DNA of 64,000 nt from an uncultured Elusimicrobia bacterium (lineage in GTDB: Bacteria > Elusimicrobiota > Elusimicrobia > 2-01-FULL-59-12): the NCBI GenBank assembly GCA_963702895.1, contig OY969767.1:1920001-1984000 (forward strand), in the 5' to 3' direction. Every line of letters begins with the position of its first letter. Positions within the stretch are counted from its first letter, which is position 1. Below, in pieces: positions 13,868 to 18,913 of this stretch. The notes beneath the pieces are model-generated. The model saw nothing but the letters and a program-made list of their open reading frames with translations, was not told the DNA's origin and ran no database searches. A program made the position numbers and the translations under genes.

Positions 13868-15082
13868 CTAGAGGGTAAAGAACTCGAGGGTCAGCGTGGA
13901 GGTCTTGTAGGAGCGTGAGCCCACGCTCTGGCCAAAATTGGCCTCCAGGAACAAAAAGTTGGGCGGGTTTTCCGAGCCGATATCTGTATCGCGCTGCCCG
14001 TAATGGATGCCGATTTGGTTGCGCACTGTCACGGGAAGCTCTCCCGGAACAAAAGCGGTCGTCTTCTCGAGCGGGATGTCGGGCGTGGAGGCGTCTTTCA
14101 TGAAAAGCCATTGAAAGGAGAAGTCATCGGATTCGTTGTTCGGGTCGGCCGCGACCGGTGTGACCTCCGCGACGGGCCGAGTCCCTGCCTTGATGCTCCA
14201 AGCCAACGAAATCGTCCTGGAAGGATCCGACGTGTTGACGAGGCCCGCGGGATTGGCGACACCCTCCTTCTCGAACTTGGGGGTCGCGTGGGAAGCCTTG
14301 TTGTCGGTGTAGATCTGCACCCCCCACGACGTGGTGTTGGCGTCGACGGCGATCTGGAAATACTGGTCCGCTATTTTCCACGCGGAACTGGTCGTCGCGC
14401 CTGTCCAGGTGATCTCCGTAGGGGAGCTGACACAGGCGGTATCGCCGAGGGCACACAACTTGACCGAGTAGATCGGAGAGGAAGCCGAGGACGGAGGATC
14501 CACATAACGCACCTGGTCGATATAAAAGGTCGCTGGCGAGAGGGCCGTAAAAATGAAAGGGAGCTGCACGGAACTTAAATTCGTCCCTGGCAGGAAGGAA
14601 GTGAGGGGGATCCTCACCAGGGACCAGCGGTTGGCCATGTCCGCGGTCCAGACTCCGGCGCCATAGAGCGTACGCTGATAGATGTAGGTGGAATCGTTTT
14701 TCTTGATGGCGATCTCAATGTTGCCATGGGGCGAGTGGATCCAGAACCGCAGTTCACCGTTCGTGAAGCGAGAGAGGTTTTGCGGGGTCGTCGCTCCATA
14801 ATCGAAACCCCACCCCGCCCATCCCGGGCCGCTCAGGGTTGTGCGATGAGTGGAGGTACCCTCCGGAGCGGCATAATCGGTGGACAGGGAGTCGAAACTG
14901 CACGGGGCACCGCAGAAACGGATCTCATTAAAGACTGCCGTCGAAGGCGGAAAACCTTTATCGGAAAAGGTGGTGTAAATTTCCGCCATCAAGGGTCGGA
15001 CGGGCAGACTCAAGAGGGCCCCGACCATGAGGTATCTCCTCCATCGGCGCTGCGTCACGCACTCAGACCCCGGTATCCTCAT
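13868..15082 (-). CDS. Secreted two-domain protein: CBM/lectin-like N-domain plus pilin-like C-domain (putative tip adhesin)
   Basis: Signal peptide; GWAGWG...LSRFTNGELRFWI...VRIPL...FYIDQVRY jelly-roll-like domain. C-domain aligns with the 17201..17917 protein and ends YKTSTLTLEFF. Confidence 0.55.
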   Translation of the reverse strand: MRIPGSECVTQRRWRRYLMVGALLSLPVRPLMAEIYTTFSDKGFPPSTAVFNEIRFCGAPCSFDSLSTDYAAPEGTSTHRTTLSGPGWAGWGFDYGATTPQNLSRFTNGELRFWIHSPHGNIEIAIKKNDSTYIYQRTLYGAGVWTADMANRWSLVRIPLTSFLPGTNLSSVQLPFIFTALSPATFYIDQVRYVDPPSSASSPIYSVKLCALGDTACVSSPTEITWTGATTSSAWKIADQYFQIAVDANTTSWGVQIYTDNKASHATPKFEKEGVANPAGLVNTSDPSRTISLAWSIKAGTRPVAEVTPVAADPNNESDDFSFQWLFMKDASTPDIPLEKTTAFVPGELPVTVRNQIGIHYGQRDTDIGSENPPNFLFLEANFGQSVGSRSYKTSTLTLEFFTL

Positions 15083-16323
15083 TTGGCGACTCCGATCACA
15101 CCGGACACGCGGTCATCGCTGGTCGTGTACTGATAAATGTACACACCGCTTTCGACGATCACGCCAGAATCGTCCGTGCCGTCCCATTCGGGGGTGGGAC
15201 CCGGGATGGACCTGACGCGACGGCCGCGGATATCAAAGATTTTGACTTCATCGATCCCTGAACCAAAGACAGCTTTATCGTTGATCCCATCGCCGTTCGG
15301 CGTGATGATGCGCTCCGCGGGGCGCAAGTCCGCGGACCCAATCGCACCCGCCGGGAAAAGGCCGAAGATCGAAAAGTGCCCGGTCTGGCCGGTGAGGGTA
15401 TGAAGGGTGGTATCGAGCGTCGCGCGGCTGATGGGACGCCAGTCGCCCTGAAGGCGCTTCTCATCCAGCCAATAGATGCCCAAAGACTTGGGATCATCAC
15501 CGGTCCCGAGCACCTTGCCGGAAAGGTCCGCCGGATAACTCAGGATCAGTTCCGCCGGGGCGACCAGGGAGGTCTCTTCCAGCCTGACCGAGTAAATGAC
15601 GGCCGCGCGCGTACCGAGAGGGCCCACGCTCCATGGGCTGTTTTGCTCCGCTTTGATGCAAAGCTTGCCCGACGAAAGAACAGCGCCCCGAGACAGGACG
15701 ACCGCTGTTCGGCCGTCGACATCCGACAAATCGGGCGCGCTCACGCGGGCCCCGGCGGGCCCCACTTCGCTGCAAACCTGATCGATGATCGAAATTTGGA
15801 AAGGCGAAGCCAGAACACTTCCGCCGGGAGGGACCTCGACCTGGCCTCCAGAGCCTAAAACCGTGTCCGAAGCGCCCTGCCGGGCCCTGAATTCGTAACG
15901 GATATTGCCCCCCGTCTGGATCGCGCTGAGGTCTGTTCGGTAGATGATGGCAGTCCCTTGGAGCGTGTCGCCCACAGCGGGTCCTGGGACAAAGGGGATG
16001 GGAACACTGACCGGCGGGCCCAAGGGGCTGCCGCTCGCGTCCACCAGCTGATAAACAATGTCCACACGAAGATGCGATGGATCGATCGGAGCGCCGGACT
16101 TGCTCCTGATCGTGACCGGGATCATCATGTTCTTACCAAAGAAAGCCTCGCTGCCTAAGGGAGTCGCTTCAATGTCGAGCGCGGTCGCGCCAGGCCCCAC
16201 GGTCACTTCCGCCGTCAAGACCTCAAGTTTCTGGGACGTGAAAGACCCTCCCACGACGGGCAGGAACATCACCATGCCCGTGAGCGCGGTAAAAACAGCT
16301 CGATGAAGGAGCTTGGTCTCCAT
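15079..16323 (-). CDS. Secreted protein with FlgD-Ig / T9SS type B CTD-like C-terminal domain
   Basis: Signal peptide; GHFSIFGL motif; C-terminal IITPNGDGIND...IFDIRGRRVR...WDGTDDSG...ESGVYIYQ. Confidence 0.75.
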   Translation of the reverse strand: METKLLHRAVFTALTGMVMFLPVVGGSFTSQKLEVLTAEVTVGPGATALDIEATPLGSEAFFGKNMMIPVTIRSKSGAPIDPSHLRVDIVYQLVDASGSPLGPPVSVPIPFVPGPAVGDTLQGTAIIYRTDLSAIQTGGNIRYEFRARQGASDTVLGSGGQVEVPPGGSVLASPFQISIIDQVCSEVGPAGARVSAPDLSDVDGRTAVVLSRGAVLSSGKLCIKAEQNSPWSVGPLGTRAAVIYSVRLEETSLVAPAELILSYPADLSGKVLGTGDDPKSLGIYWLDEKRLQGDWRPISRATLDTTLHTLTGQTGHFSIFGLFPAGAIGSADLRPAERIITPNGDGINDKAVFGSGIDEVKIFDIRGRRVRSIPGPTPEWDGTDDSGVIVESGVYIYQYTTSDDRVSGVIGVAK

Positions 16324-17096
16324 TAGTTCACTTTCCCCATCTCCACCTGTCCGTCTTTGAGCACCTTAAACGCACGTCCTTGTTTTAGAACAAGATCCTT
16401 GTCCCGGAGGTCCACATGAAGGACATATTTGCCGGGTTTGATGGTGAGGCCGCCCGGGGTCTGCCCCGTGTAGAGAGACTCCTGGCCGGGGTAGGTCGGC
16501 TGTCCTTCGAGAATCGGCATGCGCGCGATTTCCCTCCCCTTACGGTCCACGATCAGGAAATATCCGCTGGGCCTCATATGAACGTTGCCCGTGGACCGTA
16601 CCTTCGCGCTCAGGCTCAGGCGTCCGGACCAGGCTTTGGCATAAAGATCGTTTATAGAACCGTCAATTTTTTCCGACCCAGCGCCAATCAAGTACATCGA
16701 CACGCTGATCATGGGCGTGACCATGGAAGGTGGCCGCGTCCGGTAGACAAAAGACACCATCCCGACCACTTCGCCGTCCATCGTCTTGGGACATCGGACC
16801 ATGAGATCCACTTTTCGCCGCTCGGCCGGTTTGAGCACAAAAGCCGCCTCACCGAGGTTCTTCAACCACTTGTCGACCGTCCACTCCTTATAGGCTTCCG
16901 GAATGAACCAGTCTTTTTGAGAGACCTCGATATCCAAGTCCATCTGGTCATCATTGGTCACCGTGAGCGACACCTGGGTGCTCGTCCCCGGCGTCAGACG
17001 CACTTCCGTCCGTGCCGGAACCACCTGGAGCGCCATGGCCGGAAGGGCTCTGAGGCCCGGTACCGCAAGACAGAGGATCAAGAGATACGGTTTCAT
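16323..17096 (-). CDS. Periplasmic two-Ig-domain chaperone-like protein (PapD/DUF916-like)
   Basis: Signal peptide; LQVVPARTEVRLTPG...LTVTN, WL...FVLKPAERRKV, second domain with STGNVHMRPSG...PGKYVL. Confidence 0.6.
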   Translation of the reverse strand: MKPYLLILCLAVPGLRALPAMALQVVPARTEVRLTPGTSTQVSLTVTNDDQMDLDIEVSQKDWFIPEAYKEWTVDKWLKNLGEAAFVLKPAERRKVDLMVRCPKTMDGEVVGMVSFVYRTRPPSMVTPMISVSMYLIGAGSEKIDGSINDLYAKAWSGRLSLSAKVRSTGNVHMRPSGYFLIVDRKGREIARMPILEGQPTYPGQESLYTGQTPGGLTIKPGKYVLHVDLRDKDLVLKQGRAFKVLKDGQVEMGKVN

Positions 17097-17917: not shown

Positions 17918-17947
17918 TGTTGTGTCCTCCTTTTTTATCATGAGTAC

Positions 17948-18913
17948 TTAAAAATAGACCGTGATCTGCAGCCGGTGGCTGCCGGATGCGTCCGATACGA
18001 AATAGGGGATCGTGATTCCGTAATCGAAGCGGAATCCAAATTTCTTCCCCAAAAGCTGATAGTAACTGAGCCCCATCGCGCCTTCACTTCGGTTCGCGCC
18101 TAAGCGTAAGCCAAGGGTGTCATGGAAAAGCCAGCTCTCAGCGCCCCCGTAGATCCCCGTTTCGCCATCGCGCCTTGAGAGATCCAGCGCAGGAACAAGC
18201 CAGGGTATCCGTCGGCTCTGGTAGGCAGCCCCCAGACGCCATTCGACCGGCACGCGGTCTGTCTCCCGGAAACCCACATCCGGCTGATTTAAATTTTTGA
18301 CGGACAAGCCGACCCGGCAACCCTCGCAGGCACCCGCGTCCGGCTTCCAAAGCAAACCGAGGTCCGCGCCGAATGCGCTCTGGCTGTTGCCGCCGGAAAA
18401 GGTCGGGTCCGCCGAAGCCGCCGCGTCCAGCGAGAAACTGCGCCGCAAGTACTTGAGATTCACACCCATCGACACTTGATTATCGAGAGCGGGAATGAGG
18501 CCTCCCAGATAGTGGGCGTAGGAGAGCGTCACGGTATCTTCCCGGTAGAGGCTGGTGGTGTTGAAGTCCGCCCAGGAAATCCCCCAGGAACCATAGCGCA
18601 TGGCACGCGAAGCATAAGCAAGGTAGCTCTGGTCCAGGTGGACGGTATCGCCACCGGTGGAGGCACTGCCGCTATAAAGCGTCAGCCCGGAAAATAGACG
18701 GGAATACATGGCCGTGATTTCATTCCATTGGATTTGAACGAGTCCCGCGGGGTTGTAGAGGGAGGCACTGGAGTCGTCAGAGATCGCGGTATAAGCCCCC
18801 CCCATTCCGACGGGGCGGGCACCCCAGCCGCTGTCCTGAAAAGCTGCAAAAAGCGAAGAGGGCACAAGCAGCTGGAACGAAAGAATCGTGACGAGGAGTC
18901 GCGTCGATTTCAT
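17948..18913 (-). CDS. PorV/PorP(SprF)-like outer-membrane beta-barrel
   Basis: Signal peptide; GARPVGMGGAYTAISDDSSASLYNPAGL N-terminal motif; amphipathic strands; ends SHRLQITVYF. Confidence 0.8.
   Translation of the reverse strand: MKSTRLLVTILSFQLLVPSSLFAAFQDSGWGARPVGMGGAYTAISDDSSASLYNPAGLVQIQWNEITAMYSRLFSGLTLYSGSASTGGDTVHLDQSYLAYASRAMRYGSWGISWADFNTTSLYREDTVTLSYAHYLGGLIPALDNQVSMGVNLKYLRRSFSLDAAASADPTFSGGNSQSAFGADLGLLWKPDAGACEGCRVGLSVKNLNQPDVGFRETDRVPVEWRLGAAYQSRRIPWLVPALDLSRRDGETGIYGGAESWLFHDTLGLRLGANRSEGAMGLSYYQLLGKKFGFRFDYGITIPYFVSDASGSHRLQITVYF

Follow-up and report, generated by a model that had tools for sequence, protein, structure and literature searches.

A predicted usher-less donor-strand pilus with a type IX-style anchor in an Elusimicrobiota bacterium

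We analyzed a 64,000-nucleotide stretch of DNA (the window) from an uncultured bacterium of the phylum Elusimicrobiota, whose genome is a single contig of 2.72 Mb that is 98% complete. Five minus-strand open reading frames (ORFs) at 13868..18913, spaced by 0 to 104 nt according to the ORF list and inspection of the sequence, encode a barrel, a pilin, a chaperone, a protein with a type IX secretion system (T9SS)-style C-terminal domain (CTD) and a tip. We consider it probable that they specify a chaperone-guided donor-strand pilus, a diderm counterpart of the Elr/WxL pilus of Enterococcus in which a CTD and a barrel replace the LPxTG motif and sortase. Taking its parts separately, donor-strand assembly is very likely, anchoring through the CTD and barrel is likely and a long polymer is fairly likely, while export led by an SprA-like protein is close to an even call. 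An usher is generally regarded as a requirement for chaperone-assisted donor-strand pili in double-membraned bacteria. An earlier reading of the same DNA (the original prediction) had described five closely spaced exported proteins and a hybrid fiber in a probably non-Bacteroidota organism; all five proteins lay where they had been placed, each with a signal-peptide-like N-terminal segment (judged by eye), and the host is indeed not a member of the Bacteroidota.

Pilin, base subunit, chaperone and tip

The pilin and the C-terminal half of the tip are homologous, as originally proposed: the shared motifs are present in both, and a pairwise alignment gave 33% identity over 183 amino acids (aa) (E value = 2e-24). 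Neither protein matched a Pfam or NCBIfam family. Among 111 pilins, no Pfam family was matched by more than two; WxL was not among 25 of the 32 matched families that were listed, and the C-terminus of the window's pilin has no W-x-L. The pilin profile matched 603 cluster representatives (E value ≤ 0.001) and found no match among PDB sequences. An AlphaFold2 (AF2) model built from the 111 sequences (predicted local distance difference test [pLDDT] = 92) has a beta-sandwich core, an incomplete immunoglobulin (Ig)-like fold with an open groove, and leaves mature residues 1 to 19, the N-terminal strand, without paired secondary structure, so that the modeled subunit is not a complete, nonpolymerizing fold. 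Its structural neighbors were mostly donor-strand pilins: TLP-1b (Z = 7.3, root mean square deviation [rmsd] = 7.1), CsuE (6.5), CS17 (6.3), Caf1 (6.2), CfaE/CfaB (5.9 to 6.1), and CooA and PapG (5.7), with a few glycosidase domains interspersed.

We built a donor-strand matrix from 108 pilin N-termini, the window's pilin included. In the window it scored 35.1 bits on the pilin, 20.2 bits on the CTD protein and -9.9 bits on the tip. Across related loci, 27 of 39 pilin-class proteins reached 10 bits or more, as did 12 of 26 CTD proteins or their equivalents (anchors); none of the 26 tips, 37 chaperones and 29 barrels did, and neither did any of 23 further CTD ORFs in this genome. Because many pilins that were scored may also be in the training set of the matrix, the real test is the count for the anchors.

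The donor strand on the CTD protein had escaped the earlier note. The mature N-terminus of this protein copies that of the pilin (AF[TQ]S....A..TV.GG type), and a profile-profile comparison matched the two N-termini with a probability of 93%, signal peptides included. In its AF2 model (pLDDT = 87), mature residues 1 to 18 are free, with a pLDDT below 50 for the strand; an Ig domain comes next, then a ZU5-like domain (Z = 12.0, rmsd = 2.5) and finally the CTD. The CTD matches that of translocon-bound NucA (8GLK_D; Z = 8.8, rmsd = 1.9, 70 of 75 residues; also 8GLJ_D), and it holds the motif TPNGDGIND, with CHU_C recognized at 29 bits, above the Pfam cut-off of 27.

Multimer prediction of donor-strand exchange had been suggested as a check, and we modeled the anchor-pilin pair alone (a strand-less pilin with anchor residues 1 to 155), using our own alignments. 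The complex score was 0.85, versus 0.00 for the best of three controls; among solved complexes, 116 of 157 attain this mark, and among mismatched pairs 2 of 215, counts that apply only approximately here because the alignments were our own. At least 79% of contacts agreed between model runs, with a partner pLDDT of at least 73. The predicted interface consists of anchor residues 1 to 19 only, antiparallel to pilin residues 199 to 210 (the last strand), a geometry given for subunit exchange in Elr and chaperone-usher pili in the available text of a preprint on the Elr pilus (10.64898/2026.10.17.759780). The score thus favors binding of the anchor strand by the pilin, short of demonstrating it, and the CTD protein is likely the base subunit of the fiber. 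We also observed an HFS motif at window positions 15370-15378 (anchor residues 316 to 318), where the ZU5-like domain ends. The pattern H[FL][ST] occurs in 26 of 43 anchors; nine were left unplaced by the script, and one placed match (L040) is possibly misplaced. We take HFS to be the self-cleavage motif of PIDD/UNC5-type ZU5 domains, and its position suggests that the fiber might be shed.

The chaperone had been likened to the DUF916 partners of WxL proteins, and this resemblance held: PF06030 (DUF916) was found in 11 of 13 family members at an E value of ≤0.1 (best, 4e-6), and the top PDB sequence match was EfmWxLIP1 (E value = 0.0045). DUF3324 was not among the 16 families matched by these 13 chaperones, PapD_N (PF00345) was absent from them and from this genome (controls positive), and a C-terminal membrane helix was found in 0 of 35 chaperones. 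In the Atlas cluster nearest to the chaperone, Elusimicrobiota were the most frequent source. The N-terminal domain of the tip resembles the galactose-binding folds of CBM30, Exop_C and CIA30 (ESM Atlas score, 0.95). Related tips span about 370 to 1,325 aa, and among eight long ones scanned, CBM30/Exop_C occurred in five and GH2-like barrels in three, with both in one. The homology of pilin and tip, the N-terminal domain of the tip, which is like a carbohydrate-binding module (CBM), and the lack of a donor strand on the tip bear out the pilin, chaperone and two-domain-tip logic of the original prediction.

In the assembly that we propose, the five proteins would cross the inner membrane by Sec, judging from their N-termini, and by analogy with ElrE and PapD we expect the chaperone to occupy the grooves of pilin and tip. 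Pilins would then polymerize by inserting their N-terminal strands into the groove of the next subunit, antiparallel to the last strand there; this geometry is predicted for the anchor-pilin pair and inferred for pilin-pilin contacts. By their sequences the tip can only accept a strand and the CTD protein can only donate one, so they would close the two opposite ends.

How long such a fiber could become bears on a different, quite improbable reading, namely a short stalk in which the tip, one or a few pilins and the anchor extend a CBM or an enzyme from a CTD-barrel platform, in line with an earlier, static picture of WxL clusters. A fiber preassembled in the periplasm would be limited in length, duplicated loci have one anchor and one barrel per tip, and tips of up to 1,325 aa carry CBM or GH2-like domains, all of which suits a stalk. 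Hairpins behind the major pilin genes of the pap and fim operons favor pilin excess. Here, an AAGGAGG ribosome site lies upstream of the pilin gene, and the interval between the pilin and chaperone genes folds at -54.1 kcal/mol (z = -5.35), a stability that none of 200 shuffled sequences reached. Stable folds (z < -2) lie behind 26 of 40 related pilin-class genes versus 1 of 24 tip, 0 of 25 anchor, 5 of 37 chaperone and 8 of 29 barrel genes, an imperfect contrast because the non-pilin genes often run straight into coding DNA. The hairpin may raise pilin over accessory mRNA, and together with the ribosome site it suggests a large pilin excess, which argues against a short stalk. Moreover, the pilin has both a donor strand and a groove, so nothing in it blocks polymerization, and the homologous Elr polymers are hundreds of nanometers long in the available text of 10.64898/2026.10.17.759780. 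Post-pilin hairpins are not the subject of any passage in PMC9820224.

CTD, barrel and the route across the outer membrane

The barrel is clearly homologous to PorV_fam (NF033709; E value = 8e-18, 65 versus a cut-off of 90 bits) and PorP/SprF (TIGR03519; E value = 1.6e-7, 31 versus 91 bits), with scores under both cut-offs. The 29 operon barrels form a group that excludes the other 11 barrels of this genome, with support of 95/78, slightly below the starred level. In all, the genome holds 29 CTD ORFs and 12 PorV-like barrels, and for 10 of the 12 barrels a CTD gene is no more than 2 kb away, a pairing that resembles that of type B cargo and SprF-like shuttles of Flavobacterium as described in the available text of PMC12618676. 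The pairing of a CHU_C-type CTD with an adjacent PorV/PorP-like barrel was thereby upheld. The idea of a fiber anchored or exported through this pair stands as to the CTD at one end and the co-encoded barrel, and we refine it by assigning the CTD protein as the likely base and the barrel as its likely dock. The operon barrel appears to be a dedicated CTD dock; this role is more likely than that of a pore, for which the candidate is an unlinked SprA-like protein. Elsewhere in the genome, G000:C1:2185276-2232109 holds an array of 13 large ORFs, 12 with nearly identical CTDs and none near a barrel gene, and G000:C1:31591-72714 holds an open frame of 13,707 codons upstream of a CTD gene and a barrel.

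The SprA/Sov homologue (1,800 aa; G000:C1:1185972-1191413, outside the window) scored 170.8 bits versus a cut-off of 200 (E value = 2.6e-50) and found no match among PDB sequences. An SprA-like protein occurs in 183 of 201 genomes of the phylum and, by cross-count, in 52 of 53 pilin carriers; none was found in the two incomplete genomes behind loci L036 and L037, searched with no control, and we did not use this as evidence. GldK, GldL, GldM and GldN were unmatched in this genome in a search for which no control genome carried these families over the cut-off. The genome search that had been proposed for SprA and PorKLMN returned a distant SprA-like protein and, with no control for them, none of the motor proteins, which may mean a T9SS-like system that lacks the known motor. 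The usher families PF00577, PF13954 and PF15976 were absent from this genome (E. coli control positive each time), and PF00577 was found in 0 of 63 other pilin carriers, in agreement with the absence of an usher noted before.

According to our proposal, the CTD would engage the SprA-like translocon and the cognate barrel, and the CTD-less subunits would follow as one assembly, which is the weakest step; the base would stay on the barrel at the cell surface, and the tip would present a glycan-binding module or, in some relatives, a glycosidase-like domain. Since pilin and tip have no CTD, they either ride out behind the anchor or take another pore. Three variant loci bear on this choice. In L050:4105-5679, L051:3221-4825 and L053:7720-9402 the CTD protein has no donor strand; chaperone-like genes are present in two copies, and a tip gene is absent. 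The L053 protein opens with a pilin acceptor domain (probability, 98.5%); the corresponding match is weak in L050, and L051 was assigned by eye. A strand-less, acceptor-type CTD protein points to a reversed polarity with the CTD still at one end of the chain, and because the CTD would sit at a chain end in both polarities we favor a CTD-led ride-out.

The other pore could be a secretin: the anchor alone would leave by CTD, SprA and barrel, and chaperone-bound pilins and tip would pass a secretin, as in type II secretion, to polymerize outside on the anchor strand. The genome encodes four secretins, one of them about 15 kb downstream, and we found no precedent for a long polymer threaded through SprA. 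Loci in metagenome-assembled genomes of Omnitrophota (L037:7732-10987) and Planctomycetia (L036:5178-6816) also hold pilins, a chaperone and a donor-strand base with PKD domains, and their CBM-type subunits have an N-terminal pilin domain. The Omnitrophota base (donor strand, 33.2 bits; PKD domains and a ZU5-like domain) has CFI-box-CTERM, above its cut-off, as its tail where a CTD would otherwise stand, and the next gene is GspC-like, which also speaks for a secretin. However, the Elusimicrobiota loci listed showed no gene of a secretion system next to the operon, and the CTD protein at the chain end in both polarities fits CTD-led export; we regard the secretin route as unlikely. More improbable by far is an assembly that stays periplasmic or leaves with the barrel as pore, the CTD being merely a FlgD-like Ig cap unrelated to secretion. 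FlgD_ig matches the CTD weakly (E value = 0.005) and the T9SS motor genes were not found, but the CTD fold matches translocon-bound T9SS CTDs, CTD and barrel genes are paired genome-wide, an SprA homologue is present, and PorV-type barrels of roughly 300 aa are too narrow for folded subunits.

Returning to CTD-led export, a wider proposal is possible, which we hold tentatively and with slightly more doubt than belief. There would be a third donor-strand pilus route, in either polarity, in which SprA without a recognizable Gld motor replaces the usher, and a single CTD-bearing end subunit leads a polymer of CTD-less subunits and docks on its own barrel. The tail of the base would vary with the envelope: LPxTG in Bacillota, CTD and barrel in Elusimicrobiota, and, in Omnitrophota, CFI-box-CTERM with a type II secretion gene alongside.

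Several points weigh against the pilus reading and its export step. The fiber is a prediction made from genome sequence. Fold scores of the pilin (Z = 5.5 to 7.3) are middling, in the range of common beta-sandwiches, and Foldseek with the pilin model returned no match at an E value of ≤0.001, with CfaB ranked first (E value = 0.036). The donor strand scored below 10 bits in 14 of 26 anchors; so it did in 12 of 39 proteins of the pilin class, among which are some fragments, and the complex score may reflect likeness to solved donor-strand pilin pairs. The matches of barrel, SprA and DUF916 are all below curated cut-offs, the window's chaperone reaching 14 bits versus 27 for PF06030. The hairpin comparison is partly one of intergenic with coding DNA and used single-base shuffles. 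As to export, SprA is nearly universal in the phylum, so its co-occurrence gives no tie to the pilus; the secretins offer an alternative exit; and GldK, GldL, GldM and GldN, from which the energy for export would be expected, were not found in the search described above.

Comparison with known fibers

The closest architecture is that of the Elr/WxL pilus of Enterococcus faecalis, whose base, ElrB, carries a donor strand and LPxTG and which is confined to Bacillota, according to the available text of Sleutel et al. (10.64898/2026.10.17.759780). As far as that text goes, both systems have a donor-strand pilin (by prediction in the present case), no usher, a tip whose pilin domain is C-terminal and which has no donor strand, and a strand-donating base without a pilin domain. 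The Elr chaperone is of the DUF916 type, which the chaperone here resembles below the curated cut-off, and the Elr donor consensus [S/T]-x-[G/A]-x-[V/I]-x-F is similar to the pattern T-x-A-x-[A/V]-x-[V/L/F] of the present system. Unlike Elr, the present system belongs to a diderm host with an outer membrane to cross, its pilin has no WxL match or terminal W-x-L, its chaperone has no DUF3324 match or membrane helix, and in its base a CTD, with a barrel encoded alongside, takes the place of LPxTG and sortase.

With chaperone-usher pili (CFA/I, CS1, Csu, Caf1, type 1 and P), it shares the incomplete Ig pilin fold (Z = 5.5 to 6.5), a predicted antiparallel donor strand, a soluble chaperone, a two-domain tip and a diderm host. 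In contrast to those pili, it has no usher, no PapD_N match and no similarity in pilin sequence. The chaperone-usher terminator is a pilin bound to the usher (PapH/FimI), whereas the terminator here carries Ig, ZU5 and CTD domains. The system thus resembles Elr/WxL and chaperone-usher pili and is a member of neither, having no usher or PapD_N on the one hand and no WxL, DUF3324 or LPxTG on the other.

With T9SS type B cargo and its PorP/SprF shuttle the system shares a CHU_C-type CTD, and its adjacent, apparently dedicated barrel and the SprA-like protein of the genome resemble the shuttle and the translocon with scores below the cut-offs; for type B cargo, retention on the barrel complex at the surface has been proposed (available text of PMC12618676 and PMC10202324; cf. 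PMC9143113). In contrast to type B cargo, this system occurs outside Bacteroidota, GldKLMN were not found, and the cargo would be a multisubunit polymer mostly of CTD-less subunits. The best structural match of the pilin (9IKK; Z = 7.3, 166 residues aligned) is to the TLP-1a/b pond fibrils, which are of similar size; in the available text of PMC11494351 they are donor-strand fibers of unknown bacterial origin with a nearest predicted homologue from Flavobacteriales. Identity with them is unsupported beyond the fold (rmsd = 7.1, 7% identity, no sequence match with the pilin profile).

We found no description of such a system in the literature, where subscription papers and the supplements of the Elr preprint could mention diderm relatives, and no such appendage described for the phylum, about a quarter of whose sampled genomes have the pilin. 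If the export step holds, this would be a new biogenesis route. The usher-less Elr/WxL route would extend from Bacillota to diderms, type IX parts would work outside Bacteroidota without a recognizable motor, and a polymer could be exported on a single secretion signal. The operon parts are small enough for tests in E. coli.

Gene order, variants and neighborhood

The features of the operon are listed in Table 1.

Table 1. Operon features and their positions in the window
Feature	Position	Strand	Length	Remarks
PorV/PorP(SprF)-like outer-membrane barrel	17948..18913	-	321 aa	C-terminal Phe; alternative starts 18922, 19012; NF033709 and TIGR03519 matches
Major pilin	17201..17917	-	238 aa	Longest ORF from 17941; mature protein taken from Phe at 17839
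Pilin donor strand	17783..17839	-		Mature residues 1-19; pilin N-terminus matrix
RNA hairpin between pilin and chaperone genes	17120..17172	-	24 bp	Fold energy versus shuffles
Two-domain DUF916/WxLIP-like chaperone	16323..17096	-	257 aa	No C-terminal membrane helix
Likely base/anchor subunit (CTD protein)	15079..16323	-	414 aa	Donor strand, Ig, ZU5-like, T9SS-type CTD
Anchor donor strand	16186..16242	-		Mature residues 1-19; pilin matrix
CTD secretion signal	15082..15333	-		TPNGDG.ND motif; CHU_C and fold match
Tip	13868..15082	-	404 aa	CBM-like N-domain; C-terminal pilin domain (about 14428-13874); no donor strand

The pilin was found in 12 of 41 genomes in the search of relatives and in 53 of 201 genomes (30 of 73 genera) of the phylum, this genome included in each case. 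Conservation of the five-gene order, which the original prediction had proposed to check, was borne out in part. Of 34 loci mapped, 8 have the order of the window and 20 have all five parts, the other 12 of these in two permuted orders; in all of these 12, as well as in four more loci, the barrel comes immediately after the anchor. The remaining loci are variants or are ended by contig or fetch limits; L035, a tip fragment only, was excluded from later counts, and L032 is covered in part. In L039 and L056, tip, anchor and barrel are repeated as a unit after one pilin and chaperone. Genes checked next to related loci include GH94, GH3, CBM11/30 and sugar ABC proteins.

Plus-strand ORFs overlapping the operon were set aside by inspection as shadows, and a promoter scan was at chance level (1 found versus 2.0 expected). 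Downstream, window positions 5538-12728 encode a 2,396-aa SpvB/TcdB_midN/FG-GAP/RHS protein with a LamG domain that looks like an RHS polymorphic toxin and is preceded by a sigma-70 factor gene (12738-13562); among the related loci listed, none showed an RHS-type gene downstream of the operon. Upstream, at 19916-24333, lie genes for a GAF-GGDEF cyclase, a solute-binding protein lacking an obvious signal peptide and a receiver-PAS-histidine kinase. Eight related loci (by eye) have comparable genes for a binding protein and a cyclase upstream of the barrel, which suggests control linked to sugar and cyclic di-GMP.

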